NCBI GenBank assembly: GCA_964580075.1
Contig: CAZOJL010000006.1
Span: 1 to 54,895, forward strand
Length of the DNA: 54,895 nucleotides
Direction: 5' to 3'
Source of the DNA: an uncultured Akkermansia sp.
GTDB lineage: Bacteria > Verrucomicrobiota > Kiritimatiellia > RFP12 > JAAYNR01
The position numbers were made by a program, and so were the translations under genes. Positions 2,824 to 33,273 of this stretch are shown piece by piece. The notes under the pieces are model-generated. The model was not told where the DNA came from and did not search any database. It saw nothing but the letters and a program-made list of their open reading frames with translations. How positions within the stretch are numbered: position 1 is the stretch's first letter; each line of letters begins with the position of its first letter.

Positions 2824-3669
2824 GTGGACCTTGAACGTGCCACCGCGCTGCTGGGTGTCGCGTGCTATGTGGCCGCATCGCTGCTGGCAGGCGGATTACT
2901 GATTTGGACCCCGTCGCGCGGCGTGCGCGCGGCTCGGGTGCTGCTGGCTGTGGGTGCATCCCTGCTGGCCGCCGTGCTGATAGGCGGCTGGGTGCGCGCC
3001 GCCGCCATTCCCGTTTTCAACCGGTTCGACGCCATGACCTGCTACGCGCTGGCGCTCAGCGGAGCCTATCTGCTGATGGGGGCGTCCTGCCATGCCCGCG
3101 GCATCGCCTGCCTGCTGATCCCCGCGGCCACCGTCATTCTGCTGAGCGGCGTCTCCGCCGGCGGAGGCGGCGCCGGGGAGCCCGCTCCCGTACAGGGAAC
3201 CTGGCTGGTGATGCACGTGGTAACCGCCTTTGCGGCTTACGGCGTGTTCACTGTGGCCAGCATCAGCGCGGCGGCCTATCTGATACAGGACAGCAACCTC
3301 AAACACAAGCGGTTTGGGCTGATCTGGGAGCGACTGCCTTCCTTGGAAGCCCTCGATCAGAACATGAGTCGGCTGGTGGGCGTCGCCTTTTTGCTGCTGA
3401 CCTGTTCCATTGTGATGGGCTTCGTGTTGGTGCGCAAAAGCGGAGGGGGCGATGCCTGGTTTACGGATCCCAAGGTGGCGGCAACCGTGGCCACCTGGAT
3501 CATGCTGGCCGTGTTCGTGCATCTGCGCGCCAGTTCCGACCGGCACGGACGCGGGATTGCCCTGATGGCGGTGGCGGGTCTCGCCTGCCTGCTCTTCTCC
3601 TTCATCGGCGTGCACGCCGTGTCGGCCACGCTGCATGCGTTCCTGAAGATCGGAGCGGGTACGCCATGA
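2824..3669 (+). CDS. HemX/CcsA-like cytochrome c assembly family membrane protein
   Basis: 281-aa polytopic hydrophobic ORF with a GTG start. It lies immediately upstream of hemA with an ATGA overlap, the classic hemX position. Confidence 0.55.
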   Translation: MDLERATALLGVACYVAASLLAGGLLIWTPSRGVRAARVLLAVGASLLAAVLIGGWVRAAAIPVFNRFDAMTCYALALSGAYLLMGASCHARGIACLLIPAATVILLSGVSAGGGGAGEPAPVQGTWLVMHVVTAFAAYGVFTVASISAAAYLIQDSNLKHKRFGLIWERLPSLEALDQNMSRLVGVAFLLLTCSIVMGFVLVRKSGGGDAWFTDPKVAATVATWIMLAVFVHLRASSDRHGRGIALMAVAGLACLLFSFIGVHAVSATLHAFLKIGAGTP

Positions 3670-5027
3670 CGCTCAGCGTGGTCGGTGTTAGTTTTCATAC
3701 CGCGCCTGTCGGACTCAGGGAATGGGTCGCGATCGGCGAGCGCGACGTCCCCGGCAGACTGCACAGCCTGCAGGCTGAATTTCCGGAATCGGAACTGGTG
3801 TTGGTGTCGACCTGCAACCGCACCGAGATTTACGTGGCGGGGAAGGCTGCGGCCGCCGATCCGCACCGCCTCATGCGCCTGTTGCTCCAACGCGACGCGG
3901 CCCAACCCCCGCCTGACTTCGACACGCATGTGTTTGTCCACAGCGGCTTGAAAGCCGCGGAGCACTTGCTGGCGGTCGCCTCGGGTCTGGATGCGATGGT
4001 GGTCGGCGAAACGGAAATCCTGGGACAGGTCAAACGGGCGTTCGCCACGGCGGAGGCGTGCCAAACCACGGGCAGAATGCTGCAGCCGCTGTTCCAGAAC
4101 GCTTTCAAAATCGCCAAACGCGTCCAGTCCGAGACGGACATCGGCCGCGGACGCGTCTCCGTGAGCGCGTTGGCCGTCGAATTCGCCGAGAAGGTTTTTG
4201 ACGAACTCGGCGCCAAGACCGTCATGCTCGTCGGCGCCGGGGAAACAGCCGAACTGGCGCTCAAGAGCCTGATGGACCGGGGGGCGCGCGACGTCCTGGT
4301 GCTCAATCGCTCCCTGGAACGCGGGCAGGCGCTCGCCGAACGCTGCGGGGGCCGGGCGCTTCCCTTCGACCTGCTCGACGATTACCTCCCGCGCGCCGAC
4401 ATCGTGATCAGCTCGACCAGCGCCCCGCATCTCGTGATCCAGGCCGCCGCCGTGCAACGTGCCATCGAGATCCGACGCGGCCGCCCCATGCTCTTGGTCG
4501 ACATCGCCGTTCCCCGCGATATCGACCCGACCGCCAGCCAGATCAAGAATGCCTACGTGTATTCCATCGATGACCTCCAACGCATCGCCAGCGCGAATCT
4601 CGCCAAACGCCAGGGGGCGGTCGATCAGGCATGGCACATTGTTCGGCAGGGCACCGCCGACATCGCGACGCACTTTGACAGCCGGGGCGCGCGGGAGGTG
4701 CTGCGCAAGTTCGATGAACAGGGACGGGACGTCTGCGAACGCGCGTTGCAGCGGGCATTTGCCCGCGAGTGCCTGGCAAACCTGCCCGATCCCAGCCGCG
4801 AGGAAATCCGGGAACTCGCCCGGAAGATTGTCAACAACCTGTTGGCGGAACCGCGGCAGGCGCTCAAGCGCGCCGCCACCGGCAGCGAGTGGGACACCTA
4901 TGTACGGGTGGTCAACGACCTGTTCGGCTTCGACCGGCAGGAGGCCCCCGCGGAGGATGCCGCTCCTGAATCGGAAAAGCCCCCCCCCCGACACCCGACC
5001 CTGAAACAGAAGGAGAACTCACGATGA
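3666..5027 (+). CDS. hemA: Glutamyl-tRNA reductase
   Basis: Internal ATG of the long 2862-5027 ORF. Protein starts MTLSVVGVSFHTAPVGLRE. Contains STCNRTEIY, ETEILGQVK and the NAD-binding VGAGETAELA motif. ATGA overlap with the upstream gene. Confidence 0.9.
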   Translation: MTLSVVGVSFHTAPVGLREWVAIGERDVPGRLHSLQAEFPESELVLVSTCNRTEIYVAGKAAAADPHRLMRLLLQRDAAQPPPDFDTHVFVHSGLKAAEHLLAVASGLDAMVVGETEILGQVKRAFATAEACQTTGRMLQPLFQNAFKIAKRVQSETDIGRGRVSVSALAVEFAEKVFDELGAKTVMLVGAGETAELALKSLMDRGARDVLVLNRSLERGQALAERCGGRALPFDLLDDYLPRADIVISSTSAPHLVIQAAAVQRAIEIRRGRPMLLVDIAVPRDIDPTASQIKNAYVYSIDDLQRIASANLAKRQGAVDQAWHIVRQGTADIATHFDSRGAREVLRKFDEQGRDVCERALQRAFARECLANLPDPSREEIRELARKIVNNLLAEPRQALKRAATGSEWDTYVRVVNDLFGFDRQEAPAEDAAPESEKPPPRHPTLKQKENSR

Positions 5028-6208
5028 TTGGAATATCCAAACTTTACTGCGGCACTGTGGAGGCCTCGGATCCGTTGCGCTATGGACGCCGCTCGAAGGA
5101 TCTGCCCTCGCATTTGCTGCAATTTTCGGCCGACAAGAAACCCGTTGTGGTCTGGAATGTCGGGCGTCGCTGCAATCTCAAATGCGTGCACTGCTATTCT
5201 CACTCCCGAGATCAGGCCTACTCCGACGAACTGTCGCACGAAGAGGGACGGCGCCTGCTGACCGATCTCGCTGACTTTGGCGCCCCGGTGATCCTCTTTT
5301 CAGGGGGAGAGCCGTTGCTCCGGCCGGACATCTTTGAATTGATCCAGCACGCGACACGCGGGAAGATGCGCGCCGTCGTCTCGACAAACGGCACGCTGAT
5401 CACCCCGGATATCGCCGCCCGCCTCAAGGACGCGGGGCTTTCCTATGTGGGCATCAGCCTGGATGGTCTGGAGGCGACCAACGACCGGTTTCGCGGCGTC
5501 AAGGGCGCGTTCCACATGGCGCTGGAAGGTGTGCGGAACTGCCTCAAGGCCGGCGTCAAGGTGGGGCTTCGCTTCACGATGACCCGGGAGAACTACCACG
5601 ATGTGGGGGGCATCCTGGACCTTATCGGACAGGAAGGGATCCCCCGTGCCTGCTTCTATCATCTCGTCTATACCGGACGGGCGACCCGGTTGGTCCATGA
5701 GGCGCGCATGTCTCACGCCGAGACGCGCGCGACCGTGGATCTGATTATGGCCCGCACCCGGGCGTTTCATCAGCAGGGGCGGCCGGTTGAAGTGCTCACC
5801 GTCGACAACCACACAGACGGCCCCTATCTCTACCTGCGGCTCCTGCAGGAAGATCCCCAACGGGCGGCGGAAGTGCTCACGCTCCTCAAGATGAACGGTG
5901 GCAACAGCACCGGCACCGGCATCGGCTGTGTCAGTTGGGACGGTTCCGTTCATCCGGATCAGTTCTGGCGTCATTATTCTTTTGGAAATGTCAAAGAACG
6001 CCCGTTCGGCGCGATCTGGACCGACACGTCCGAACCCCTGCTGGGCAAATTGCGGGAACGCAAGAAATACCTGACGGGCCGCTGCGCGGCCTGTCAATGG
6101 CTGGATCTCTGCAATGGCAACTTCCGGGTGCGGGCCGAAGCGGTCACAGGCGATGTGTGGGCGCCCGAGCCGGATTGTTACCTGACCGACCCGGAGATCG
6201 GAATATGA
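5024..6208 (+). CDS. ahbC: Radical SAM/SPASM enzyme of the alternative heme pathway (NirJ-like, probably Fe-coproporphyrin III synthase AhbC)
   Basis: CNLKCVHC radical SAM cluster motif and a Cys-rich C-terminal SPASM-like region. Long N-terminal ISKLYCG..LRYG extension. Operon context with hemA and ahbD. AAGGAG RBS and ATGA overlap. Confidence 0.65.
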   Translation: MIGISKLYCGTVEASDPLRYGRRSKDLPSHLLQFSADKKPVVVWNVGRRCNLKCVHCYSHSRDQAYSDELSHEEGRRLLTDLADFGAPVILFSGGEPLLRPDIFELIQHATRGKMRAVVSTNGTLITPDIAARLKDAGLSYVGISLDGLEATNDRFRGVKGAFHMALEGVRNCLKAGVKVGLRFTMTRENYHDVGGILDLIGQEGIPRACFYHLVYTGRATRLVHEARMSHAETRATVDLIMARTRAFHQQGRPVEVLTVDNHTDGPYLYLRLLQEDPQRAAEVLTLLKMNGGNSTGTGIGCVSWDGSVHPDQFWRHYSFGNVKERPFGAIWTDTSEPLLGKLRERKKYLTGRCAACQWLDLCNGNFRVRAEAVTGDVWAPEPDCYLTDPEIGI

Positions 6209-7368
6209 AAGACGACCTACGCCTGGTGTTCTGGGAACTGACGGCGCGTTGCAATCTGAAGTGTTGCCACTGTCGCGCCGAAGCTCACGACGCCTTTGTC
6301 GCCGGTGAACTGACAACCGCACAGGTGCTGGACGTGGCGCGCGATATCCGCGCCGTCGGCGATCCCATCCTTGTCCTCACCGGCGGCGAGCCGCTGGTGA
6401 GGCCGGACTTCTTCGAGATCGCCCGCGCCTGCACGGGCCTGTTCAGCCGGGTGGCGCTGGCGACCAACGGCACGCTCATCGACGATGATCTGGCGCGCCG
6501 CATCGTCAGCACCGGCATCCAGCGCGTCAGCGTCAGTCTCGACGGCGCCCGGGCGGCCACCCATGACGCCTTCCGCGGCGTCCCGGGCAGCTTCGACGCC
6601 ACGATCCGCGGTTACGATGCGCTGGCACGGGCCGGCGCTTCGCTCCAGGTCAACGCGACCGTGGCCCGGAACAACATCGCCGAAGTCCCGGCGTTGCTGG
6701 ACTTCCTGCTCGAACGCAAGGTGGACGCCTTCCATGTGTTCGCGCTCGTCCCGGTCGGCTGTGGCGCCCAGATCAGCGATGACGCACGGCTCTCCTCTGA
6801 ACAAATGGAGACTTTTCTTCGCTGGCTGTTTGAGCAATCCATCGCGTTGCGCGACCGCATCCACATCAAGGCGACCTGTGCGCCGCAGTATTACCGGATC
6901 ATGCGGGAAGTGTCGCGCGAGAAGGGGCTCCCGCCGCCCGGCGCGGGTCATGGCGGCCACGGACCGGCGAGCGGCAATGGCATGCAGGCGATGACCCGCG
7001 GCTGCCTGGCCGGCTCCGCCGTATGCTTCATCTCCCGGACCGGCAACGTCCAGCCCTGCGGCTATCTCCCCGTGTGCGTGGGAAACGTCCGCCAGCAGCC
7101 CTTCGGCGAGATCTGGCGCCACGCCGCCGTCTTCGCGGCCCTCCGGGACCCCGGCCAGCTCAAAGGGAAGTGCGGCTCCTGCGGCTACCGCGTGATCTGC
7201 GAAGGGTGCCGCGCCCGGGCCTTCGCCGCCACGTCGGATTTCATGGCCGAAGATCCCGATTGTTCGTACGGCCTGCCCGCAGGGGTCGAGGATGTGAAAC
7301 AGACGGCTGATGAAGCGCGAATGAAAACGGAAACCACTGGTTTTTTCGGAAGAGACCCGATATCATAG
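6205..7368 (+). CDS. ahbD: Radical SAM/SPASM heme synthase (AhbD/NirJ2-like)
   Basis: Starts MKDDLRLVFWELTARCNLKCCHCRAEA. C-terminal CGSCGYRVICEGCRARA SPASM cysteines. ATGA overlap with ahbC. Confidence 0.65.
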   Translation: MKDDLRLVFWELTARCNLKCCHCRAEAHDAFVAGELTTAQVLDVARDIRAVGDPILVLTGGEPLVRPDFFEIARACTGLFSRVALATNGTLIDDDLARRIVSTGIQRVSVSLDGARAATHDAFRGVPGSFDATIRGYDALARAGASLQVNATVARNNIAEVPALLDFLLERKVDAFHVFALVPVGCGAQISDDARLSSEQMETFLRWLFEQSIALRDRIHIKATCAPQYYRIMREVSREKGLPPPGAGHGGHGPASGNGMQAMTRGCLAGSAVCFISRTGNVQPCGYLPVCVGNVRQQPFGEIWRHAAVFAALRDPGQLKGKCGSCGYRVICEGCRARAFAATSDFMAEDPDCSYGLPAGVEDVKQTADEARMKTETTGFFGRDPIS

Positions 7369-7399
7369 CCGCACTTGCCAATGTGGTTAAAAAGCCGAG

Positions 7400-10300
7400 G
7401 TGGACGTGGCGCAGACAGAACGGGAACAGGCGGTTTTGAACATCCTTCAGAACCTTCAGGATCTCGACGGGCTGAAACGCCTGTTCTGGGAGGAATTGAA
7501 CTACGAGCGGGAGAACAAGCCGCTCAGCCCGCGTCAATGGCCGGACAGTGCCAGGCAAGCCCTTGCCGAAGACCCGGTTCTTTTTGCCAGTGGCGGCGAG
7601 GACAAGGCATTCCACGTTGTTTACTGTCGCCTGGCTTCACCCGATTTGAGTCGTGGGCTTGAGCGCCCGGTTGTGAACCAACTGCTTCGCGACCATCCCT
7701 ACGCCTTGTTCGTATTCTCGAATAAGGATCAATCTGCCTGGCACTTCCTGAACGTCAAGTATGACGAGAAAGCCGAGAACAGGCGTCTGTTTCGTAGAAT
7801 CACGGTCAGGCCGGGCGCTGGTTTGCGCACGGCGACGGAGCGCGTTCAACTTCTGGACCTGGCCGGGATCAATCCCAAATTGTTTGGCATCGCGCCGCTG
7901 GCGATCCAACAACGCTGCGACGTGGCTTTCGATGTCGAAGCGGTCACAAAAGATTTCTTCCGCGAAGTCGCCAACTGGTACTTCTGGGCGCTGAAACACG
8001 TCGCGTTTCCGAAGGATGCGCCCAAGGAGGCTGACGGCCACGACCACATCAGCGTGATCCGCCTCATCACGCGCCTCATCTTTTGCTGGTTCGTGAAAGA
8101 AAAAGGACTCATCCCCGACGGCCTTTTCGACGAGCGCACACTCGCCCGGACTCTCACTGGCTTCGAGCCGGCGAAGACCAGCGACAAGGAATCTGTTTTC
8201 TACAGAGCCATCCTGCAAAATCTATTTTTCGCCACACTCAATACCGAAATGGACAAGCGCGGCTGGACGAAGGAAGAACAGAATTTCATGGCGCACAGCC
8301 TCTACCGTCATCGCGACTGTTTCAGCGAACCGAAATCCGCGCTCGATTTGTTCAAGGAGATCCCGTTCCTCAACGGCGGGTTGTTTGAATGTCTCGACAA
8401 AGACCTCGGCCTGCCTGCCGCGCCGCCTGCCTGTGCCGCCACGGCAGACAGGAACGCGGCGCAGGCAGGCGAAAACGCGAAGCCGCGCTACGTCCGCATT
8501 GACGGTTTCTCCCGGCGCGAAGACAGCCAGCCCATCGTCCCGGACTTTCTCTTCTTCGGCGGAGAGCGCGAAGTGGATTTGAGCGCGGATTACAATGACA
8601 AGAAATTCGGACGCGTGCCGGTGCGCGGCCTCATTCACATTTTCACCCGCTACCACTTCACGATCGAGGAAAACACGCCGATCGAGCAGGAAGTCGCGCT
8701 CGACCCGGAATTGTCCGGCAAGGTGTTTGAAAACCTCCTCGCGGCCTATAACCCGGAAACCGGCGCGACCGCCCGCAAACAGACCGGCTCGTTCTACACG
8801 CCGCGCGAAATCGTCAACTACATGGTGGACGAGGCGCTCATCGCCTGTTTGAAGGAAAAACTTGAAGGTGGCACAGGCATTCCTGCCTGTGGTGGAGATG
8901 CACAGACAGGAATGTCTGTGCCACCCTTGCCCAATCGCGGCGTGCGGCCACTCCCGAACCTGGAAACGAAGTTTGTTGCCGCCAACACACTCATTGGCGT
9001 GAACCGACCCGGCCAGCAATTGCTTCGCAACCTCGACATTGACAAGAAGGAAGCCGAACTGCGCGACGTACGCAGACGGCACTTTCTTGCCCGGAATCTC
9101 CGCGACAAACGCAAGTGCCGCGATGATGACGCCAGACTCCGCGCCGAAATCGCCGAACTGCTCAAAGGCGACGGATGGGACACCGCCACCGCCCGCAAAC
9201 TCGCCTCATGGGACCCCTACGACCAGAACGCCTCCGCGGATTTCTTTGATCCCGAATGGATGTTTGGGATCATGGACGGCTTCGCGGTGGTAATTGGCAA
9301 TCCTCCTTATGGGCTGGTTGGCAGTGATCGAGTTGAGGCGCGGGCATACTATACTTCAGGGCGCTTCAAACTGACGGCATACAAGATAAATCTTTATCTG
9401 CTGTTCTTGGAACGCGGCCTCGAATTGCTCAACGGGCAGTCAGGCATTCTGAGCTTCATTATTCCAAAATCACTTGTGTTCAATTCATATTTTGAGGCAA
9501 CACGACGAAAGCTTCTCGACCAATATTGTGTCCCGCTAATCGTAGAGGTAAGAAAAAAGGTGTTTGAAGCAGCGGAAGTGGGCGATAGCGTTCTTTTCTT
9601 CAGTGCCGCACATCGTCCAACTGCCAATTCCAGACTGGAGTATAGAGTAGTCGAAGACGTGAGTCCCGGCAGCCAAGTCATTTCGATGCAAGCCAATCTA
9701 CAGACGGAATTGGCTGCGTCGATCGGAGCGCGATTTCGTTTATCGAGCGTCAAAATTCCAAAGACGCGGAATACCCTCGGCGATCTCTGGGAAGTGAGCA
9801 ACGGACTAAACCCGGGCAACGTAAGGCATCTCCTGCTTTCCGCCACCAGACTCACTCCGAAACACAGAAAGATGCTTCTCGGACGGGATATCCAAAGATA
9901 CGCGCTCAAGTGGTCGGGAACGTGGGTTAATTTTGATCCTTCATTGAAAGAAACGATCAAGCCGAGCGAAACACGGTCAAAAAAAGGAATGACTGCTCAA
10001 CAGCACGTGGACTTCGCTCTCCGTTCACCCGAGATATACAAACCGCATAAGGTGATGGTCAGAAAGACAGCCGACCGAATTGTTGCATGCTTTGATCTCG
10101 ATGGACTGTGCTTTGATTCGCTGTCGTATGGAATCCACCCGAAATCCAATGGGTTCAATCCGAAGTTTCTTCTAGGTTTATTGAATTCGACAGTGCTTGG
10201 ACACATTCATGCAGAACTCTCGCAGAACCAGGAAAAGGTATTTGCGAAGGTTTTGGCCGAGAACCTCCGTAAGCTTCCCATGCCCAATCTCAACCACAAC

Positions 10301-10480
10301 CTTGCAGATGATCGTGCGAAACACGACGCTCTTGTGGCTTTGGTTGACCGCATTCTCGTCGCAAAGCAGACGAATCCCGCCGCCGACACGAGCGCGTTGG
10401 AGCGGGAGATAGACCAACAGGTTTACGCCCTCTACGGGCTGACGCCGGAGGAGATCAAGATTGTGGAGGGGGCGAAATGA
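7400..10480 (+). CDS. Large N6-adenine DNA methyltransferase of the type IIG / Eco57I / BREX PglX-like class, probably catalytically dead (SAM-binding motif I region replaced)
   Basis: 1026-aa ORF with a GTG start. Contains FLNGGLFE, GSFYTPREIV (motif X), PLPNLETKF and VVIGNPPYG (motif IV), a C-terminal TRD-like region, and the tail LEREIDQQVYALYGLTPEEIKIVEG. No DPACGSG-like motif I is visible between FYTP and NPPY; a palindromic repeat sits there instead. Confidence 0.75.
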   Translation: MDVAQTEREQAVLNILQNLQDLDGLKRLFWEELNYERENKPLSPRQWPDSARQALAEDPVLFASGGEDKAFHVVYCRLASPDLSRGLERPVVNQLLRDHPYALFVFSNKDQSAWHFLNVKYDEKAENRRLFRRITVRPGAGLRTATERVQLLDLAGINPKLFGIAPLAIQQRCDVAFDVEAVTKDFFREVANWYFWALKHVAFPKDAPKEADGHDHISVIRLITRLIFCWFVKEKGLIPDGLFDERTLARTLTGFEPAKTSDKESVFYRAILQNLFFATLNTEMDKRGWTKEEQNFMAHSLYRHRDCFSEPKSALDLFKEIPFLNGGLFECLDKDLGLPAAPPACAATADRNAAQAGENAKPRYVRIDGFSRREDSQPIVPDFLFFGGEREVDLSADYNDKKFGRVPVRGLIHIFTRYHFTIEENTPIEQEVALDPELSGKVFENLLAAYNPETGATARKQTGSFYTPREIVNYMVDEALIACLKEKLEGGTGIPACGGDAQTGMSVPPLPNRGVRPLPNLETKFVAANTLIGVNRPGQQLLRNLDIDKKEAELRDVRRRHFLARNLRDKRKCRDDDARLRAEIAELLKGDGWDTATARKLASWDPYDQNASADFFDPEWMFGIMDGFAVVIGNPPYGLVGSDRVEARAYYTSGRFKLTAYKINLYLLFLERGLELLNGQSGILSFIIPKSLVFNSYFEATRRKLLDQYCVPLIVEVRKKVFEAAEVGDSVLFFSAAHRPTANSRLEYRVVEDVSPGSQVISMQANLQTELAASIGARFRLSSVKIPKTRNTLGDLWEVSNGLNPGNVRHLLLSATRLTPKHRKMLLGRDIQRYALKWSGTWVNFDPSLKETIKPSETRSKKGMTAQQHVDFALRSPEIYKPHKVMVRKTADRIVACFDLDGLCFDSLSYGIHPKSNGFNPKFLLGLLNSTVLGHIHAELSQNQEKVFAKVLAENLRKLPMPNLNHNLADDRAKHDALVALVDRILVAKQTNPAADTSALEREIDQQVYALYGLTPEEIKIVEGAK
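8409..8470. repeat. REP-like imperfect palindrome, in frame inside the methyltransferase ORF
   Basis: GCCTGCCTG..CCTGCCTGTGCCG / CGGCAGACAGG..CAGGCAGGC arms. Shares the CCTGCCTGTG / CAGACAGG core with the 8867 and 25610 copies. Translates as LPAAPPACAATADRNAAQAG. Confidence 0.55.
8867..8925. repeat. REP-like palindrome, in frame inside the methyltransferase ORF
   Basis: GGTGGCACAGGCATTCCTGCCTGT..ACAGACAGGAATGTCTGTGCCACC. Near-perfect 24-nt arms. Translates as GGTGIPACGGDAQTGMSVPP. Confidence 0.8.
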
Positions 10481-10592
10481 GAACCGCCATTAGCGCCATG
10501 CTCTCCAATCTTAAGTCGCTGGCCGTGGTGCGGGTGATCGAGGATGCGGACAACGTGGTGGAGAGAATGTCTGCGAAACAAGGAGTGCAACT

Positions 10593-12344
10593 ATGATCAC
10601 AAAACTGGTACTGAAGAATTTCAAGAGCATAGCCGGGCAAACGTATGATCTGACGAAGTTTGATCTGTTGGTGGGGCGAAACAACTGCGGCAAGAGCACC
10701 ATCCTGCAAGCCATGGCGATTTGGCAGTTCTGCGTGGATGAGTTTCACCGCGCACGCAGAAGCGGAAGCAACGGCATCCAAATCGTTCTGCCAAACTTCA
10801 CCGCTTTGCCGGTGCCGGAGTTCAACCTCTTGTGGCATGCAAAGGTTGACAGGAAATATGCTTTGGTTGATGGCAAACGATCCAAGAAGACCGACTTTGT
10901 CTTGATTGAAATCGAACTCACCTGGTTGGCCGCCAATCGGGAGCTTCGGTCTTTCGGTGTGCAGCTTCGATACACGGCGGCGCAATCCGTTTACGCGATT
11001 CCGATGCAAGGTTGGAAGATCTTTCGAGAGATGGAAAAGGATCTGAGTTTTCCGAAGATCGCGTATGTTCCCCCGTTTTCCGGCCTTGAGCCCAGCGAGG
11101 AGTGGAGAGATGAAGGTCCGCTCAGAAAACAGGTCGGCAAGGCTCAGCCGGGGAGCATTCTCCGTAATCTCTTGCTCAAAGTGTGTCCCGCGCCGCCGCG
11201 CGATCACACCGGGCGCATCGCCAAGACGTACGAACCGCCTGCGGAATGGAAGGAACTGAAGCAGGTTGTCAGTCGCTGGTTCTCTGTTGAGTTGACGGAA
11301 CCCCAGTACGAGCGCGGGGTGGACACGCAGATTCTCTGTGAATACAAGCAGGGCGGCAAGTCGTACGACATTATCTCCGGCGGAAGCGGCTTCCATCAGG
11401 CGTTGACGCTCTTGGGTTTTCTCTACGGCTACCGCCCGACCACGCTTCTTCTGGACGAACCCGACGCCCACATGCATGTGAATCTTCAACGTGAAATGCT
11501 CGACTACTTCAAGAAGAAAGCCAGCGAAACAGGCGTCCAATTCCTCCTGGCAACGCATGCCGAGGAGCTGATCAGAGGTGTTGACCCGAGTCAGGTGGTA
11601 TCCATTCTGCAGCATGAGCCGCGTCGGCTGACTTCTGCGACCGGTGTGCTGAGCGCGATGGCCGACGTGTCCAACGCGGAACTCAGCCAGCTCGCCGCTT
11701 CGCCATTTATCCTGTATGTCGAAGGCGAAACCGATGAACGCATTTTACGCGCCTGGGCTCCCACCTGCAAAGCCGATAATGCGCTTGCGAAGGTTTGTTT
11801 TCATACCATGGGCGGCGGCACCAAGAAGCTGATGAAAGATCATGCGGACCGGCACTACGAAGGTGTCCGGCAGGTGTTTCCAGAGGCGCGGCGTTTGATG
11901 CTGTTCGATTATGACAGCGACGAAAACGCTTTCCACCCTCCAGGAGAAAATTCCGCGCTGTTTGAGTGGGGGCGCAAGAACATTGAGAACTATCTTCTCG
12001 TACTTGATGCGTGGATGCGTACGGTGACCAAGGAATTAGGATTGCCGGACGATGATTTATTGGCGGAACCGGCTCGGCAGGTCATCAGGGACTTCTTTTC
12101 CAATGAAAATCTAACGCTACCCCGAGGGCAGACTTGGGAAAGCGTGTCGGCGAACGTCTTTAAAGTGGTGGACGGCAAGAAGCTGCTTTTTGACTCTAGC
12201 GAGGCGCTGTTCACGAAACTTGAGAGGATGGAGCCGCCCCTTAAGGCGATCCGCGAGAAGATCGCGGGCATGATGGGCGAGAACGAGATACATGATGACG
12301 TGAAACGGTTCTTCGCCAAGTTGCGCACCACGGTTGGTGACTGA
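10593..12344 (+). CDS. ABC-type ATPase fused to a DUF4435/TOPRIM-like nuclease domain (PARIS AriA-AriB-like fusion or OLD-like)
   Basis: Walker [10 protein letters not shown], Walker [13 protein letters not shown]-loop LLATHAEE. C-terminal [13 protein letters not shown] and FDYDSDE acidic TOPRIM-like motifs. Confidence 0.6.
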
Positions 12345-12355
12345 AGGAGCGAACA

Positions 12356-12841
12356 ATGGCAAGCGGATCTTCTATAGAATGGACCGAGTCGACATGGAAT
12401 CCGGTCACAGGCTGCACGAAAATCAGCGCGGGCTGTGCGCACTGCTACGCGGAGCGCATGGCCCGCCGGTTGCAGGCCATGGGTCAGCCGAATTACCGCA
12501 ACGGGTTCAAGGTCACATGCCATCACGATGTGCTGGGGCACCCGATGCGGTGGAAAAGGCCGCAGGTGATTTTCGTGTTTCTGTCGCTGGAACCTTTGCT
12601 AGGCCCATTGCCCAGGCTTGATCTCAATGGGATCGGCTGGGTGATCGTCGGCGGCGAATCCGGCCCGGGTGCGCGCCCGATGGACTCGGCCTGGGCGGCC
12701 GACATCCGCGACCCGTGTCTCGCCGCTAATGTGCCGTTCTTCTTCAAGCAATGGGGCGGCGTGCAGAAAAAGAAAGCTGGGCGTTTATTGGAGCACCGCA
12801 CGTGGGATCAAATGCCCCAGTTATCGGAGGTTGGCGCATGA
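12356..12841 (+). pseudogene. DUF5131 (phage Gp37/Gp68) family gene with an apparent in-frame internal deletion
   Basis: N-terminus [30 protein letters not shown] and C-terminus [33 protein letters not shown] are typical. The central segment expected after [10 protein letters not shown] (NSMSDLF...) is absent. 161 aa versus my recollection of about 250 aa for the family. Confidence 0.55.
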
Positions 12842-12899
12842 TCTCTGGACCATGCGTCGCGAGAAGATCGATCTGCGTTAAGTAACTAAGGAGACCATC

Positions 12900-14789
12900 A
12901 TGCCGAGAACCAACAAGACAGCCAACGAACAACGGCTCAGCGCCGAGCAAATCGCCTTCTTGAAGGAAAAGATGGGCCACTTCGCAGATCGGAACCCGTC
13001 CGCAGGGATCGCGCGCACCGACTGCAAACAGCTTTTCGAATATGTGGCGGTCCAGAAGATCACGTACCTCTATGACGATGAACTGCTCGAAGGCCTTCTG
13101 CACGTGGATCGTAAGCGAACCGGCAAGGCTGAAGAGTTGTTGGACGCCTACCTGATTCTGGATCAGGGCGATGAGGTCCAACTCAAACTCTTTCAGTTCA
13201 AGTGGAAGGAGGACTACAGCGGGGGGATTTCGACCAAGGAACTCCATCATTTTGTCACCCGCATGAATGCGGTCTTCCTGCACGGCGATCTTCAGGACGA
13301 CAAGACTCTGGAGGCCTTCAAGGAGGTTCGCGAGGCTTTCGACGCCGCCCTGTCCGCAAACAAGCGCGCCCGGCCGCGAATCCAGTGTTACTACGTCGTC
13401 AACGGGCAGAACGTTTCACCCACCGACGTCGCCAAGATTCAGGAAATCCGCGACATCTTCGCACACGACCGACAGGCCTATGGGTTTACGTTCGAGACCT
13501 ATGGCGGTACGGACATCTACAGCCTGTGCGCACTCGGCCGCGTCCCGATCCAAGAGGAGACGCTGGAGGTGAACCACGAATGGGGCAATGAGTCATTCCT
13601 GTTGCACAACATTGGCGCCAATCCCAACGGTATGCCGCTGAAAGTTATGGTGGGATTCGTCAACGTGAACCAGTTGATCCGACTGGTAGACCGTTACAGC
13701 AACAACGAATTGTTCGAGAAGAATGTCCGGCTCTTCCTCGGCACAGGCAAGGATGTGAACAAAGGGATCATCAAGACGGTCACCAGCAACGAGAGTGTCT
13801 GGTTCGGCTACATGAACAACGGTGTGAGCATGACCGCCGAGGATGTCCGCGTGGACCTTCCCGCTAGCAAGGGCAAGGTGCGCGTGCGGCTGACGGGGAT
13901 GCAGATCATCAACGGATGCCAGACGGTCAATGCGCTCTACCATGCCAAATATTCGCCCGACCTGAAGGATCGCTTCCAAGGCAATTCGAACGTCATGGTG
14001 CGCATTTACCAGATCGATCCCGCAAACAAGCCGTTTCACGATGCGCTGATCATTGCGACGAACTCGCAGAACGCGATCCGGCCGGAGGACTTGGTCTCGA
14101 ACGATGCGACGCAGTGCGCCATCCAGCGGGTCTATCAGGAGTACGGCATCGGCTATGAGCGAAAGGAGGGTGAAACACCTCCCGGCCATGGTTATCAAAT
14201 GACCTTCTCGAAGGAACAAGCCGCAATGGCTTACCTTGGTGTCATCGACGGAAAGTGCTCCAAGCTCCGAAACTCGCTCAGCCGTAGGGAGTTCTTCCGT
14301 CAAGGTGAAGATTATTATCGCGTTTTCAACCTCCGTGGATCCGAAGGAGAGTCGCCGTCCGGGTCGCTCCCCGAAGGGTTCGAGCCTGGCGCTGCCGCCA
14401 ATGCGCGCGCATTGGATATCTTGGCGGCGCGATGCATCGAGGAGGCGTGCCGCGTGAATATTGCTAAAGTGCCCAAGCAGGATCGTGGTCCGCTGAAAAA
14501 AGGCGCGTACTATTTGGCTCGCATCATTTTCCTGCAAAATGAGGCGCAGGTTCTGGATGTCGTGGCCAAATTGAAGGGCCAGGAGAGGAAGCCTTGCGTT
14601 TCCAAGGAGGTGATCGATCCCGTATCTATGATCGGAAACAATGGTTTTATCGCCGCACGAGGCGTGTTTGAAGCCGCGATCACGGAGTATCTGGCCAAAG
14701 AGGGCGGCAACGAGGACGCCGCACTAAAGAACACGGCTTTTGCATCGTTGGTCGATGAGCGGAGCGTACTGAAGATGGAGGGAATATGA
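12900..14789 (+). CDS. AIPR (abortive infection phage resistance) family protein
   Basis: 629-aa ORF with AAGGAG RBS. Central IINGCQTVNALY motif characteristic of AIPR proteins. Confidence 0.75.
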   Translation: MPRTNKTANEQRLSAEQIAFLKEKMGHFADRNPSAGIARTDCKQLFEYVAVQKITYLYDDELLEGLLHVDRKRTGKAEELLDAYLILDQGDEVQLKLFQFKWKEDYSGGISTKELHHFVTRMNAVFLHGDLQDDKTLEAFKEVREAFDAALSANKRARPRIQCYYVVNGQNVSPTDVAKIQEIRDIFAHDRQAYGFTFETYGGTDIYSLCALGRVPIQEETLEVNHEWGNESFLLHNIGANPNGMPLKVMVGFVNVNQLIRLVDRYSNNELFEKNVRLFLGTGKDVNKGIIKTVTSNESVWFGYMNNGVSMTAEDVRVDLPASKGKVRVRLTGMQIINGCQTVNALYHAKYSPDLKDRFQGNSNVMVRIYQIDPANKPFHDALIIATNSQNAIRPEDLVSNDATQCAIQRVYQEYGIGYERKEGETPPGHGYQMTFSKEQAAMAYLGVIDGKCSKLRNSLSRREFFRQGEDYYRVFNLRGSEGESPSGSLPEGFEPGAAANARALDILAARCIEEACRVNIAKVPKQDRGPLKKGAYYLARIIFLQNEAQVLDVVAKLKGQERKPCVSKEVIDPVSMIGNNGFIAARGVFEAAITEYLAKEGGNEDAALKNTAFASLVDERSVLKMEGI

Positions 14790-15607
14790 CCACGAAGAGC
14801 AAAAAACAGTCGCGTGAAGCCGAATCGCTCTCTCGGCGGATGGAACGTCTGGCGGGCGGGGCGGCGAAACGCGGGGTCCGCGACGCGCAAGATTTGGTCT
14901 ACGACGCCTGGGAGGCGGCGAACAGCGACGAGGCGTTCGATCTGCTGACCCAAGCCGTCGAACTCGACCCGACCAACGTGGACGCCTGGCTGGGGCTGAT
15001 GCGCTACGAGCCGCTTGACGGCAAGGAGGAGGTCGTGTTTCTCCGCCGTCTCGTGGCCTTGGGTGAGAAGAACCTCGGCAAGAAGGTGTTTCGTGAGGGC
15101 AAGGGCATCTTCTGGGGGCTTTTTGAGACGCGGCCCTACATGCGGGCGCGGGCTCGGCTGGCCTTTCGCCTGATGGAGGCCGGGCGGCTGGAGGAGTCCG
15201 TGGCCGAACACGAGGGCATGCTCGAACTCTGTTCGAACGACAATCTGGGCGTGCGCTACGGGCTCATGGCGCTCTATCTGGCACTGAACAACCTCGACGG
15301 CGCGAATCGCCTCTTCCGGGAATACGACGAGCGGGAGCACCGCGCGATGTTCGCCTGGGCCTACGTGCTCGAACGCTATCTGGCGGGCGATACGGGGGGC
15401 GCAACCCAAGCGCTCGCGGCGGCGCGGAAGCAGAACGAGCATGCCGAAGCCTATTTTGCCGCGCTCAGGAGGTTGCCGAAGAAGATGCCGGGATCGTACG
15501 CCATGGGGAGTCCAGAGGAGGCCGTGATCGCATGGGAGATCCTCAAGCCGGCATGGAAGAAGCATCCGGAGGCGCAAGCCTGGCTAATCGGCCAGTGCGC
15601 GAAGTGA
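14786..15607 (+). CDS. TPR-like all-helical protein, translationally coupled to the AIPR gene
   Basis: 273-aa ORF with ATGA overlap to the AIPR stop. Repeated helical A/L/E-rich TPR-like segments. No catalytic motif recognised. Confidence 0.45.
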   Translation: MTTKSKKQSREAESLSRRMERLAGGAAKRGVRDAQDLVYDAWEAANSDEAFDLLTQAVELDPTNVDAWLGLMRYEPLDGKEEVVFLRRLVALGEKNLGKKVFREGKGIFWGLFETRPYMRARARLAFRLMEAGRLEESVAEHEGMLELCSNDNLGVRYGLMALYLALNNLDGANRLFREYDEREHRAMFAWAYVLERYLAGDTGGATQALAAARKQNEHAEAYFAALRRLPKKMPGSYAMGSPEEAVIAWEILKPAWKKHPEAQAWLIGQCAK

Positions 15608-15644
15608 GTGAGCTTTGGGAAAAGAACGTGCTGGGAGGTCAGCC

Positions 15645-15815
15645 ATGATCCGACTGCACGTCACCGTGGAGGGGGCAACGAAACAGCGATTCCTGAAGGA
15701 TGTACTTTGTCCTCAAACTCGCTTGCGTTGCTCCGATAAAGGCGCTACAGTGAGTCGCAAATCGGGAATGCTCCCTGCGCATTATGGATGTGGTGCGTCC
15801 GATTCTACGGCATAA
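15645..15815 (+). pseudogene. Possible remnant of a DUF4276-family (TOPRIM-like) gene
   Basis: GGGAGG RBS followed by MIRLHVTVEGATKQRFLKDVL, which resembles DUF4276 N-termini. The ORF is only 56 aa and the remainder shows no resemblance. Confidence 0.3.
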
Positions 15816-15864
15816 TGATGCTTGGCTGCATTTTGGATTTATTGGATCAGTGAGCGAGGTGGAT

Positions 15865-18666
15865 ATGGATGCTGCTTGGAAATGGAATGGCGCTCGGTGG
15901 TGGAAGTTCGACTGCCACGCCCATACGCCACAGTCGGATTGTTATGGCGAAGGGGACGCCGCGCTCAAGGCGCGCACGCCCGAGGAGTGGCTGCTCGACC
16001 ACATGCGGGCCGGGTTCGATTGCGTCGCCGTTACCGACCACAATTCGGGCGAATGGATTGACCGGCTTCAGGAGGCGGCGGCGAATGAAACCTTGCGGAA
16101 ACATCCCGACTTTCGCGAGTTGGTTCTCTTTCCGGGAGTGGAACTGTTCGTCAACGGCGGGTTCCATGTATTGGCGATTCTGGGCGCGGATAAGACCGGG
16201 GCGGACGTGACGCGCTTGACTGGTGCTTGCGGATACGATTCGGCCAGTGGGGCCACAACCAAGTCTTTTTCCGAAGTTGCCGCCGCCATTGCCGCAACTG
16301 GCGGCGTGGTGTTGCCGGCGCACGTGGATGAACGAGACAAGAAGGGGCTTTGGGCGTTGTCTGACGAAAAAACGTGGCAGCAGGTGTTGGCTGTCAAGAC
16401 GTTGACAGCCTGGGAGGTTATGGATGCCTCCCAGCAACCACCGGACGTGGTTGTCCGATCCGGGCGGCAGTTTACGCGCATCCTTGGTTCGGATAGCCAT
16501 TGTCCCGAAAAAGTCGGCACGCGGTGGTCTTGGGTGAAGATGACCATGCCGAGCATTGGCGAACTGCGTTTGGCTCTGCAAGACGGCGAACTGGCGGTCC
16601 GCCCCTCGGACAAATACCCGGACGATCCGAACAATGTTCTGCCCGCTTTGGCGGTGGAATCCGTCACGGTCACGGATGCCAAGTATTTGGGTCGCACTTT
16701 CAGTGACGGAAGATTGAATACTTTTGCAGCCGCTTTTGGCCCTTGGCTGAATGCCATCATTGGCGGGCGCGGCACCGGGAAGTCGTCGCTGCTGGAATTT
16801 ATGCGCATCGCCTTGCGCCGGGAGGGCGAACTCGCAAAAGCCTTCGATAAGGAACAGATACGCGAAAATTTTGAGCGCTATCGGATAACCGGCGAGAAAG
16901 GTCTCTTGCTTCCGGGCGCCCTTATTCAGATCGTCTACCGGAAGGAAGGGCAGCGTTATCGCATCCAATGGAGCGTTAACGGGAACGCAACGGCCATCGA
17001 AGAGGAAACGCATGGCGGCTGGGTGCGCGCGGACGGCGACATAGCCGCTCGTTTTCCGGCGAGCATCTACAGCCAGAAGCAGTTGTTTGCCCTGGCGGGC
17101 AATCCAGCCGCTTTGTTAGACATCATTGACCAGACACCGGACATCAATCGCCAGGAATGGGATCAGAAGAGAAGCGAATTGGAAGGATCGTTTCTGTCTT
17201 TGCGCGCCAAGGAACGCGAGTTACAGGCACGCTTGACCGATGAAACACGACTGCGCGGAGAACTGGCCGACATCGAGCGACGATTGGCTGTCTGGGAAAA
17301 GAAGGCCACGCGCGACACCTTAAGAGCCTTCCAGCGACTGGCCCAACAGAGGGTTGGGCTGGAAAACTGGACAGCGGCTTTAGACGAAACGGTTGCGCGG
17401 CTCGCCGCTTATCCTGACGCCTTGACGCTGGAGACGCTGAACACCAGCATCTTCGACACCGGAACGCAGAATGAGAAAGCCGTTCTGGATCGGATACAAA
17501 CCACCACCGCCGCCTGGGCAGGCGTGATCAAGGCGGTCCAGACTGGGGCTGTTGATGCCGGGCGGGTGGCGCAGGAATGGAAAACATGGCTGGACCGTTC
17601 GGAATGGAAGAAACAGGCGCAGGAGATTGAGGCGGAATATGCGGGCTTGATTGAGCAATTGGCCGGGGAAGGCGTGGCGGATGCGGCCGACTATGGGAAT
17701 TGGTTGCAACAGAAACAAGCGCTGGAGGCCCGTCTCCGCGCGATTGCCGGTTATCGGACGGAAATTGCGCGATTGCAGGCACAGGCAACGGGCAAGTTGT
17801 CCGAAATTCGATCTCATCGTCGCGACCTGACGGAGAAGCGGCGGCAGTTTCTAAGCAACATACTGGCCACCAACAGTTTTGTGCGCATGGATGTGATACC
17901 TTATGGCGAATTGGATGATGCGCATGGTCAGTTGTCGGAATTGTTGCGCTGTGAAGACGCAAGGTATTCCACGGATGTTACCGGGTTACTGGACAGTGTG
18001 TATTTTCCTGACGGCAAGTCCTACATTTCGACATGGAAAGGCGTGGATGCGAGCCAGAGAATGCAGCTAGAGGAGGACATGGATAAGCGCTTGGTCGCTC
18101 TTAAGAAGCGTATCGGCGATTGCGCATTGGGAACAGTGCCGGAATCGCTTGGCCGTGGTTGGTTCCGGAATAAATTGAAGGATGCCGCGCAATCGCCGGA
18201 AACGCTCAATCATCTCGACCTTTCCTGGCCCGGGGACAGTGTGCATGTCTCCTATGCGAATCCGGCCACCGGCAAGTTCAGCGCGTTGGATCAGGCATCG
18301 CCCGGACAAAAAACGGCGGCTATTCTGGCCTTTGTGCTTTCCTATGGGCAAGACCCCATGATCCTGGACCAGCCGGAGGACGACCTGGACAATCACTGGA
18401 TCTACGAACTGGTGGTTCGCCAGATTCAGGAGAGCAAAAAGCGGCGGCAAATCATCGTCGTCACGCACAATGCCAATATCGCTGTGAACGGCGATGCGGA
18501 ACTGGTGCTCGCCCTGAAGTCGGATGGCGGTCGCACGGAGTACGAAGCGCAAGGCGGTTTGCAGGAAGCGGATGTTCGCGACACTGTCTGTCTGGTCATG
18601 GAAGGCGGCAGGGATGCCTTTGCGCGGCGATACGACCGGATTGTTGGAGGAACAGGACATGTATGA
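15865..18666 (+). CDS. PHP phosphoesterase domain fused to an SMC/Rad50-like coiled-coil ABC ATPase
   Basis: PHP metal ligand motifs FDCHAHTPQS, VTDHNS, FHVLAIL, LPAHVDE, GSDSHCP. Walker A GGRGTGKSS. Long Q/E/R/A-rich coiled coil. SPGQKTAA signature-like motif, Walker B ILDQPEDDLD, IIVVTHNANI. An alternative upstream ATG at 15784 is possible. Confidence 0.7.
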   Translation: MDAAWKWNGARWWKFDCHAHTPQSDCYGEGDAALKARTPEEWLLDHMRAGFDCVAVTDHNSGEWIDRLQEAAANETLRKHPDFRELVLFPGVELFVNGGFHVLAILGADKTGADVTRLTGACGYDSASGATTKSFSEVAAAIAATGGVVLPAHVDERDKKGLWALSDEKTWQQVLAVKTLTAWEVMDASQQPPDVVVRSGRQFTRILGSDSHCPEKVGTRWSWVKMTMPSIGELRLALQDGELAVRPSDKYPDDPNNVLPALAVESVTVTDAKYLGRTFSDGRLNTFAAAFGPWLNAIIGGRGTGKSSLLEFMRIALRREGELAKAFDKEQIRENFERYRITGEKGLLLPGALIQIVYRKEGQRYRIQWSVNGNATAIEEETHGGWVRADGDIAARFPASIYSQKQLFALAGNPAALLDIIDQTPDINRQEWDQKRSELEGSFLSLRAKERELQARLTDETRLRGELADIERRLAVWEKKATRDTLRAFQRLAQQRVGLENWTAALDETVARLAAYPDALTLETLNTSIFDTGTQNEKAVLDRIQTTTAAWAGVIKAVQTGAVDAGRVAQEWKTWLDRSEWKKQAQEIEAEYAGLIEQLAGEGVADAADYGNWLQQKQALEARLRAIAGYRTEIARLQAQATGKLSEIRSHRRDLTEKRRQFLSNILATNSFVRMDVIPYGELDDAHGQLSELLRCEDARYSTDVTGLLDSVYFPDGKSYISTWKGVDASQRMQLEEDMDKRLVALKKRIGDCALGTVPESLGRGWFRNKLKDAAQSPETLNHLDLSWPGDSVHVSYANPATGKFSALDQASPGQKTAAILAFVLSYGQDPMILDQPEDDLDNHWIYELVVRQIQESKKRRQIIVVTHNANIAVNGDAELVLALKSDGGRTEYEAQGGLQEADVRDTVCLVMEGGRDAFARRYDRIVGGTGHV

Positions 18667-19906: not shown

Positions 19907-19910
19907 CCGC

Positions 19911-20027
19911 GTTGATCCCGCAGCGGATACGTCGGCGTGGGAGCGGGAGATCGACCAACAGGTTTACGCCCTTTACGGCCTGACGGAGGAGGAGATCAAA
20001 ATCGTGGAGGGGAGCACGCAACGATGA
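19911..20027 (+). pseudogene. Orphan 3' end of a second PglX/type IIG-like methyltransferase gene (tail copy B)
   Basis: Translates VDPAADTSAWEREIDQQVYALYGLTEEEIKIVEGSTQR-stop. Homologous to 10370-10480. Its TGA overlaps the ATG of the PIN gene. Confidence 0.75.
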
Positions 20028-20861: not shown

Positions 20862-20898
20862 GAAACATACTTTTGCCCGGCAATACAGGAGGTTCCAT

Positions 20899-33263: not shown

Positions 33264-33273
33264 AAGGACAGGC

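Follow-up and report, generated by a model that had tools for sequence, protein, structure and literature searches.

In-frame internal deletions, each marked by a REP doublet, in an Eco57I-like methyltransferase gene and its HKD-SNF2 partner

The locus

The stretch of DNA analysed here (hereafter the window) comprises 54,895 nucleotides (nt) of contig CAZOJL010000006.1 from an uncultured Akkermansia sp. It contains an Eco57I-like methyltransferase gene and, further downstream, a gene in which an HKD (PLD-like) nuclease is fused to a SNF2 helicase. Both genes have lost an internal segment with preservation of the reading frame, and at both deletion junctions a palindrome is found that belongs to the repetitive extragenic palindromic (REP) sequences. 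Together, the open reading frame (ORF) 7400-10480 and its partner look like a recently inactivated restriction-modification (RM)-like module and not like a novel enzyme type. The features that are central to this reading are the following (loci used for comparison are numbered with the prefix L, proteins with the prefix P).

7400-10480, + strand: internally deleted Eco57I-like gamma-class N6-adenine methyltransferase / specificity gene (Pfam, homologue lengths, alignments A1 and A3)
8409-8470, no strand: first palindromic element, a nested (composite) hairpin; in-frame loop insertion of 60 nt, translated as GLPAAPPACAATADRNAAQA (inverted repeats I2 to I4, nested, 8409-8471)
8786-8815, + strand: motif X (GSFYTPREIV, aa 463-472), retained (translation and pattern search; invariant in alignment A1)
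8867-8925, no strand: second palindromic element, a REP doublet (REPIN-like) of two GTGG-headed units tail to tail, read in frame as GGTGIPACGGDAQTGMSVPP (inverted repeat I1)
8926-8946, + strand: right deletion junction, where the end of the element (..GTGCCACC) abuts CTTG followed by CCCAATCGCGGCGTG (L-P-N-R-G-V; DNA alignment with L001 and L003)
9299-9310, + strand: motif IV (NPPY, aa 634-637), retained (pattern search; invariant in alignment A1)
9869-10279, + strand: TaqI_C-type target recognition domain (aa 824-960), retained (Pfam PF12950, E 1.7e-16; alignment A1)
23993-26800, + strand: partner gene, HKD (PLD-like) nuclease plus SNF2 helicase, internally deleted, 935 aa (Pfam PLDc_2, SNF2-rel_dom, Helicase_C)
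25609-25663, no strand: second copy of the same REP doublet, with a 3-nt loop and in the same frame (GGTGIPACVPQTRMSVPP), at the helicase deletion junction

The missing core of the methyltransferase

The methyltransferase ORF is open over 1026 codons, and the start chosen by gene callers lies at 7406 (1024 aa, P0001). Its homologues number in the thousands and are typically 1130-1170 aa long, compared to 1024-1026 aa in the window. A preliminary description of this DNA, made from its letters, had proposed to compare the protein with hidden Markov models of the methyltransferase fold. With Pfam, only the C-terminal part of that fold was recovered (Eco57I, positions 51-171 of the 171 in the profile; N6_Mtase, 122-233 of 311), next to a TaqI_C match. 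Positions 1-50 of the Eco57I profile were left unmatched, whereas the intact homologues P0002 and P0004 cover the profile from 1 to 171. The best PADLOC matches were the REase_MTase_IIG models, with weaker matches to DrmMI and PglX, and the NCBIfam models for PglX of BREX scored far under their cut-offs. Among solved structures, BseCI was the sole match; it covers the recognition domain and the part from motif IV onward, and offers no anchor for motif I.

In alignment A1 the window protein matches its homologues from the N-terminus through motif X and then again from PNRGVRPLPNLETKF onward, and the block in between (~157-180 residues) is gone. In P0004 this block is 157 aa long, from EHKLRHLF to IVDQKIDDTL, and is preceded by a variable linker. 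Besides a long helical insert, it contains motif I (DPAVGSGAF) and motif II (IYGVDIQ), and the nine aligned homologues have both motifs in this interval. In the window protein, GGTGIPACGGDAQTGMSVPP, the translation of the second palindrome, stands in its place. The preliminary description had located this element between GSFYTPREIV and PLPNLETKF and had expected motif I and the following strand in that interval; the translation bears out the location, and the alignment shows exactly these motifs there. A motif-I-like string could be found nowhere in the window protein by pattern search, in line with the same description, and motif II of the aligned homologues has no counterpart in it. The deleted segments are not encoded elsewhere in the window, where the sole weak, motif-II-like match lies at 44645-44734 (E 0.008).

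The strict motif I pattern occurs in 117 of the 119 other homologues listed, so that a natural lack of motif I at this position among homologues, which the preliminary description had named as an outcome against its reading, does not account for the gap. The internal deletion itself is restricted to the window allele among the 120 listed cluster representatives. With motifs I and II gone, the predicted S-adenosylmethionine (SAM)-binding fold is left without strands beta1 and beta2. Because these two strands are gone, SAM binding is predicted to be lost, and from the established architecture of gamma-class enzymes together with the loss of motif and fold, the protein should neither bind SAM nor methylate. 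The earlier proposal of a repeat-associated in-frame deletion with predicted loss of SAM binding agrees with these data: motifs I and II are gone and an element lies at the junction.

The N-terminal domain of the window protein, its motifs X and IV-VIII and its recognition domain, by comparison, are present, and the last of these is shared with P0002 and P0003. The family as a whole is a mosaic. In alignment A1 the N-terminal ~630 residues are 70-92% identical among the homologues, while the region after NPPY, with the recognition domain, is unrelated in most of them and common only to the window protein, P0002 and P0003. This pattern is consistent with a methyltransferase family in which specificity domains would be swapped.

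The junction and the two palindromic elements

The deletion can be followed at the DNA level. In L001, the same second element is found at the same left site (a variable linker after LK.K) and is followed by intact motifs I and II. The DNA alignment of the window with L001 shows that the 470 nt directly 3' of the second element are gone. The loop of the element is moreover 7 nt shorter than in L001, for a total loss of 477 nt with the frame kept. On the right side of the junction, L-P-N-R-G-V comes after ..IVDQKIDDxx in intact homologues. The exact deletion junction had no match in the reference genomes (species representatives). The element is made of the arms 8867-8891 and 8901-8925 (25 nt, 92% complementary) around a 9-nt loop, and as single-stranded DNA it folds with -26.1 kcal/mol (z -7.4; 0 of 200 shuffles as stable). 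The 24-mer highlighted in the preliminary description matches the window four times when up to 3 mismatches are allowed, versus 0 expected from shuffles; of these four matches, two are the arms at 8867-8925 and two those at 25610-25662.

The preliminary description had further stated that both palindromes lie within the methyltransferase ORF without breaking its frame, and the open ORF and the computed inverted repeats agree with this. It had also tied both of them to the motif loss, a statement that holds for the second element, which marks the deletion, and not for the first. The first element (fold -28.0 kcal/mol as single-stranded DNA, z -4.0 versus shuffles) sits in a loop between CLDKDL and GENAKPRY, as determined by DNA comparison. 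It is present in full in L001 (P0005, from a Lentisphaerae metagenome-assembled genome, MAG) and in a 33-nt form in L003 (P0004); the methyltransferases of both loci are intact. It is missing from seven other homologues. By this comparison, the first element is best described as a tolerated loop insertion, tied to no deletion and unrelated to the missing motifs. Its two forms differ in build: L003 (2250-2290) keeps only the outer hairpin (33 nt), and in both the window (8409-8470) and L001 the outer loop encloses an inner hairpin, CCTGCCTGTGCC..GGCAGACAGG, which is akin to the main REP core.

The partner gene and the two-gene module

A scar of the same kind is present in the partner gene, where it had been missed in the preliminary description. 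Homologues of the HKD-SNF2 protein are nearly all 1115±1 aa long across several phyla (119 listed) versus 935 aa in the window, and the Helicase_C profile is covered only from 64 to 110 in the window protein versus 2 to 110 in the intact P0123. Outside the gap, the window protein is 93% identical to P0123 (L003:5210-8557). Relative to the latter, ~205 residues have been swapped for RGGTGIPACVPQTRMSVPPSS. At the DNA level, the 64 nt at window 25608-25671 stand for the 607 nt of L003 ~6825-7431, so that the gene is shorter by 543 nt (181 codons). What has gone comprises KRLIFTQYADTARYL, the strand that opens the second RecA lobe and by its position would be the SNF2 motif IV strand, as well as the insert between the lobes; the HKD region is untouched. 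The element at this junction (fold -23.1 kcal/mol as single-stranded DNA, z -5.4; 0 of 200 shuffles as stable) is read in the same frame as the tolerated insertions described below, and the downstream frame is restored. The left boundary of the deletion is an indel-prone loop among the homologues.

The two genes belong together. For both P0002 and P0004, the methyltransferase gene shares its locus with the gene of a 1116-aa PLD-SNF2 protein, 0.5-2.6 kb away (small or unrelated genes in between), so that with the window three loci show the linkage. Many matches to the methyltransferase and to the helicase also lie on contigs of equal size (e.g. 27331, 35234, 250778, 89884 and 210629). The intact helicase P0123 is recognised by PADLOC as C3a139, 'HKD+Snf2' (E 1.2e-80). 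The methyltransferase and the HKD-SNF2 protein thus form a conserved two-gene, RM-like module, which seems to consist of these two genes and nothing else, often with other defence genes lodged between them. By analogy with Type I enzymes, the nuclease probably depends on the methyltransferase subunit, which bears the recognition domain. With both genes scarred in the same manner, the entire module would be off, with the nested cargo genes seemingly left intact; a loss of the two activities in either order is plausible.

The span of the cargo between the paired genes ranges from 0.5 kb in L003 to 13.5 kb in the window. The helicase is 73-96% identical, at a fixed length of ~1115 aa, over Verrucomicrobiota, Chlamydiota, Nitrospirota, Deltaproteobacteria and Terriglobia, and this conservation of sequence and length across phyla suggests frequent horizontal transfer. 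A phage-type integrase gene and an HTH_17 gene come before the methyltransferase gene in L130, and an HTH_17 gene does so in L132.

Nature and distribution of the elements

The palindromes are REP doublets of the GTAG-superfamily type (REPIN-like, i.e. resembling REP doublets that form hairpins), the kind associated with REP-associated tyrosine transposases (RAYTs). Each REP unit consists of a GTGG head, an 8-bp stem and a 4-nt loop. The two units, GTGG-CACAGGCA-TTCC-TGCCTGTG and its partner GTGG-CACAGACA-TTCC-TGTCTGTG, have compensated stems (GGCA/TGCC and GACA/TGTC) and are joined tail to tail, giving arms of 25-26 nt. The doublets are free of stop codons in all frames. A related family with different compensated stems is represented once in the window:

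48088-48142, no strand: related REP-doublet family (GGCACGGGCGTCTCGCCCGTG...; TGGCACGGGCGTCTCGCCCGTG...), inverted repeat with 25-nt arms, 96% complementary; fold -35.9 kcal/mol (z -10.5)

The 55-kb window accordingly holds two doublets and one related element. The three copies that are tied to the finding on the two partner genes are all intragenic.

The exact 21-mer core GGCACAGGCATTCCTGCCTGT occurs at at least 120 places in the reference genomes (loci L010-L129), with several contigs per MAG. Among the matches listed, its hosts include Verrucomicrobiota, Planctomycetota (Gemmataceae, Kuenenia, Phycisphaerae), Acidobacteriota (Solibacteraceae, Bryobacteraceae), Lentisphaeria, Eisenbacteria and Dormibacterota, and some of the matches lie on Mb-size contigs. 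REP and REPIN families are usually lineage-specific, and they are usually described as spreading vertically and as located outside genes. The identity of a 21-nt core across phyla is therefore unexpected for REP families.

The elements are depleted from coding sequence, as 37 of the 123 in the reference genomes lie in long open frames versus 58% of random positions. Nonetheless, surface loops tolerate their insertion in frame, for the most part in the frame GTGIPAC / QxGM(S/P)V. Other in-frame insertions in the reference genomes were found in an RNase R-like protein, a glycosyltransferase, a SNF2 helicase and membrane proteins. The frame GTGIPA/QAGMPV was used in 12 of 19 coding-like insertions versus 7 of 39 other open frames, as judged by a heuristic classifier on a small sample.

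In several related loci, the methyltransferase genes contain more than the element. A left-site element, a RAYT-like domain and further REP hairpins are read through in frame, with no stop codon, in L131:60-4193, L132:564-4727, L130:10001-14173, L039:672-4856 and L090:2180-6253. Within these Eco57I-like ORFs, the embedded RAYT occupies the linker that joins motif X to motif I, and L090, a clearly different methyltransferase family, carries it at the equivalent position. The domain contains RRNLPHW, an HUH motif (PTHVHVVLEP) and ESYDHIVRS, and has both the HUH and the catalytic-Tyr motifs. It is matched by the NCBIfam model REP_Tyr_transpos with E 1.7e-16 and 4.5e-19, under the curated cut-off, and by Pfam Y1_Tnp with 34.3 bits, above its cut-off. 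A RAYT in the window itself was searched for by tblastn, with nothing below E 0.4. To our knowledge, no host gene with an in-frame RAYT inside it has been described. In P0025 and P0028 (from L130 and L132), aa 259-276 are a further in-frame REP-type peptide (GGTDIPVCAKGK.QAGMPV), located in the N-terminal domain; four or more inserts derived from REPs can therefore be present in one gene.

Origin of the deletions

Four of the loci with an embedded RAYT also contain the arrangement from which the window allele could have been derived. In L130 (P0025), L131 (P0022), L132 (P0028) and L039 (the last from a reference-genome MAG), two direct copies of the element are found in the same orientation and frame (GGTGIPAC...QTGMSV). 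The left copy comes after LKGKLE and the right copy lies between IVDQKV and PNRGVRALPNLE, and these positions are the two boundaries of the window deletion. The single copy in the window has its left flank as at the left site (..GAA followed directly by GGTGGCAC) and its right flank as at the right site. Its 9-nt loop (GTGGAGATG) has the same length as that of all three right-site copies (ATGGAGGAA in L132, CGGACGAAT and AAGAAAAGG); the left-site loops measure 3, 15, 15 and 17 nt.

From these observations, a two-copy mechanism may be proposed. In the ancestral methyltransferase gene, the element would have been present twice as a direct repeat, first in the variable linker that follows motif X and again right before PNRGVRPLPNLE. 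The segment with motifs I and II would then have been lost by recombination between the two copies or by replication slippage, leaving one copy of the element at the junction. Because both copies are read in one and the same frame, such a deletion would be in frame automatically, and selection against polar effects is therefore not needed to explain the open frame. The avoidance of polar effects, which the preliminary description had put forward as the reason for the open frame, is in this respect not supported as it was stated. On balance, the most probable explanation is that the window carries a dead methyltransferase allele of a two-gene RM-like module, generated by a deletion between two REP copies, and that the partner gene has been hit by the same kind of event.

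Several points weigh against this explanation. L001 and L003, which in the N-terminal part are the nearest relatives (~90-92% identical), lack a right-site copy, and the two-copy alleles come from a lineage that is only 58-71% identical to the window protein. The right junction of the window is moreover offset by 6 nt from that of the two-copy loci (it keeps TTG CCC, as does L003). With no right-site copy in the nearest relatives and this 6-nt offset, the direct two-copy ancestor is one that we infer. For the helicase, none of the 119 listed homologues has the element at either boundary, and element-type peptides occur in none of them. An allele with the element and without the deletion was sought with a pattern for the right site, which gave 0 matches in the JGI metagenomes, and with a pattern for the left site, which in a metagenome scan gave four chance matches, none of them homologous to the helicase. 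Finally, the loss of methyltransferase and translocase activity is deduced from the loss of motifs and fold.

The alleles themselves appear to be real. Fifteen contigs encode the exact methyltransferase protein; among the matches listed, they come from at least six independent assemblies, produced by two pipelines (MEGAHIT-style with k=141, and Logan). Both deleted alleles recur in near-identical form in NCBI, ENA, Logan and JGI data, with cluster-mates differing by 1-5 residues, and the longest contig carrying either deleted protein measures 81,244 nt for both. It could be argued that the genes are full-length with two copies and that the assembler jumped from one copy to the other, as a two-copy architecture can confuse assembly. 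An artefact of this kind is unlikely because the exact repeats are shorter than the assemblers' k: only the ~25-nt arms are identical, less than either k. Given also that the junction is identical on all of those contigs, and that both loci would need the same mis-assembly every time, its probability must be considered very small. Smaller still, to the point of being negligible, is the probability of a natural protein subfamily that never had motif I at this position. Beyond the open frame, nothing speaks in its favour; P0002, with the same recognition domain and 86% identity over the full-length alignment, has both motif I and motif II, and in DNA that is otherwise ~90% identical the gap forms a clean block. 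As the aligned homologues all keep both motifs, this candidate was rejected.

The main rival is a deletion in a single step, starting from a lone left copy. A break or slippage at the hairpin, or aberrant cleavage by a RAYT, would have been followed by microhomology joining ~470 nt downstream, and the helicase event would likewise be a one-step deletion with insertion. L001 indeed has the left copy only, and the window deletion begins exactly at the 3' end of that copy. Just 1-2 nt of microhomology are possible at the junction (CT/TTG), and in the helicase the element is seen at neither boundary in any listed homologue, as noted above. However, the right breakpoint falls within 6 nt of the right-site copy of three other lineages, a coincidence of ~12 in 3000 positions if the two were unrelated, and the retained loop has the length and in part the sequence of the right-site copies. 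A benign frame of the element combined with a restored downstream reading would arise in ~1 of 9 cases and would be needed in both genes. For these reasons, the single-step deletion is considered unlikely, albeit the strongest of the alternatives. A different kind of proposal, compatible with either mechanism, is that the open frame has been kept by selection, be it to spare the heme genes and the downstream array, to which it is coupled in translation, from polar effects, or because the truncated proteins still serve without catalysis, for example as scaffolds for DNA recognition or as decoys. The ORF 10477-10596 begins at the methyltransferase stop, with an overlap, and at its own end it overlaps with the ATPase gene (start at 10593); the genes from 2862 to 31338 are all co-directional, downstream heme genes included. 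In addition, both deletions and a third internal gap (in the DUF5131 gene) are in frame, and the alleles are widespread and nearly invariant. Against this, two copies in the same frame yield the open frame automatically, and the near-zero diversity among contigs (90% cluster, 1-5 residues) gives no power to detect purifying selection. Selection on the frame is thus rated as improbable, below the single-step deletion. Compared to these alternatives, the deletion between two same-frame REP copies remains the preferred explanation for the methyltransferase.

Comparison with known systems

The window alleles resemble several known types of element and enzyme without coinciding with any of them. 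In Di Nocera et al. (2013, PMC3733652), the REPs of the GTAG superfamily are described as units of ~24 nt with a 4-nt head, with the GTGG variant in most GTAG-20 elements of the verrucomicrobium Opitutus terrae. The same paper describes heterodimers, as well as in-frame intragenic dimers (20-30 aa, sometimes two per ORF) that are most numerous in that organism. With the REP/REPIN and RAYT systems (PMC3733652; Bertels & Rainey 2011, PMC3116915), the present elements share the GTGG head, the 8-bp stem, the 4-nt loop and the inverted doublet hairpin, and in related loci (not in the window) copies flank a RAYT-like gene. They differ in three respects: the window doublets mark deletions of the catalytic core in two partner genes, the related loci read REP-RAYT-REP through inside the host methyltransferase ORF, and an exact 21-mer core extends across several phyla, as opposed to the usual lineage specificity. 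The sequence of the element and its peptide had no match in the supplement of PMC3733652, and no named GTAG family was assigned.

The Rickettsia palindromic elements (RPEs), as summarised in PMC3733652 (its references 13 and 14), are in-frame palindromes in probably functional genes that add a short surface peptide. They are likewise short palindromes inserted in frame in coding genes. However, they represent an unrelated sequence family in another host, and are insertions rather than scars of motif-removing deletions.

Duplications and deletions mediated by REPs, with a REP at the join point, are known for enterobacteria from the older Salmonella and E. coli literature. There, too, dispersed copies serve as substrates for recombination or slippage and one copy is left at the junction. 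Those events join intergenic REPs and affect whole genes, whereas in the event proposed here both copies would be intragenic and in frame, so that an internally deleted ORF results.

At the level of the enzymes, the Eco57I/TaqI-like group (Type IIG/IIL, PglX of BREX, DrmMI of DISARM) has the same motif order X-I-II-III-IV, the helical N-terminal spacer and the C-terminal TaqI_C domain, and the window allele differs from it by the lack of motifs I and II. In contrast to single-chain Type IIG enzymes, the intact family members found here have no recognisable nuclease domain of their own and are accompanied by a separate HKD-SNF2 partner. This HKD nuclease plus SNF2 helicase combination is shared with DrmD and DrmC of DISARM and with PADLOC C3a139. 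The helicase is partly similar to the DrmD and DrmC models; DrmA and DrmB (DUF1998) were found neither in the window nor in the related loci. The Type-2 BREX-related (BR) systems (PMC12839542) are similar in that an N-terminal HKD domain fused to a Swi2/Snf2 helicase stands beside an N6-methyltransferase, with a predicted RM-like logic, but here the recognition domain is C-terminal and not nested. Neither a DUF499 ATPase nor DUF3780 turned up when the island ORFs were scanned with Pfam, PADLOC and NCBIfam, or in the gene tables of the related loci. BREX, DISARM, Type-2 BR and single-chain Type IIG systems were rejected as assignments, as the defining components (PglZ/BrxC, DrmA/DrmB, DUF499, DUF3780) are not present.

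Significance of the deleted alleles

Domain matches would lead to both proteins being annotated as an intact methyltransferase and an intact helicase, which is almost certainly wrong. Checks of domain coverage are therefore needed before defence systems are counted in metagenomes. In-frame intragenic REPs and REP-mediated rearrangements are each known already, and the window is a new instance of them. It provides a clean sequence-level case of how REP repeats that are tolerated by a gene can later remove catalytic subdomains while the reading frame stays open. This offers a concrete route by which RM-like modules may be switched off with their nested defence genes intact.

A more far-reaching idea is that in-frame REP doublets flanking the catalytic cores of defence genes act as frame-preserving 'off' cassettes: one recombination would turn off the methyltransferase and a second one its nuclease-helicase partner, with the translation of the nested cargo and the downstream operon spared. 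Related to this is the idea that a host defence protein may include an expressed RAYT, a lifestyle that would not have been described before. Both are speculative, and we regard them as doubtful. Most worth following are two observations, namely REP-RAYT-REP read in frame inside methyltransferases and a REP core that is identical across phyla, as an in-frame RAYT and a shared 21-nt core bear on how REPs and RAYTs spread and persist.

The defence cargo and neighbouring genes

Between the two partner genes of the window, the following cargo is encoded.

10477-23989, + strand: co-directional defence cargo between the partner genes (13.5 kb; Pfam, PADLOC, NCBIfam), made up of the ten ORFs below
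10477-10596, + strand: 39-aa ORF
10593-12344, + strand: OLD/AriA-like ATPase
12356-12841, + strand: DUF5131 protein
12900-14789, + strand: AbiU/AIPR protein
14786-15607, + strand: TPR protein
15784-18666, + strand: Ppl/TrlF ATPase
18524-19906, + strand: SLFN-AlbA2 protein (first)
19937-20521, + strand: PIN protein
20899-22107, + strand: HEC-01A ATPase
22235-23989, + strand: SLFN-AlbA2 protein (second)

The DUF5131 gene (12356-12841, + strand) encodes 161 aa and is matched by Pfam in two stretches, of which the one listed covers aa 75-154 (profile 157-243). Profile positions ~75-156 are seemingly gone, at the point where ..QVIFV meets FLSLEPLL.., and this junction has no palindrome. Judged by its profile coverage, the gap looks like a third in-frame internal deletion of the island.

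Rfam recognised no family at gathering score anywhere in the window. An AT-rich inverted repeat at 32934-33064 (55-nt arms, 80% complementary, 21 nt apart), which has no Rfam match, lies just upstream of a Pyr_redox_2 gene (33103-34632). The defence island interrupts a co-directional array of heme biosynthesis genes, the two parts of which lie at 2862-7368 and 26852-31338 of the window. A GlutR fusion and two radical-SAM/SPASM genes are located upstream of the island, and NirDL-like and HemC-CobA-HemD fusion genes downstream. The window derives from a bacterium of the PVC group, and its HemC-CobA-HemD fusion is 65-78% identical to the counterparts in MAGs of Verrucomicrobiota, Victivallales and Kiritimatiellia.

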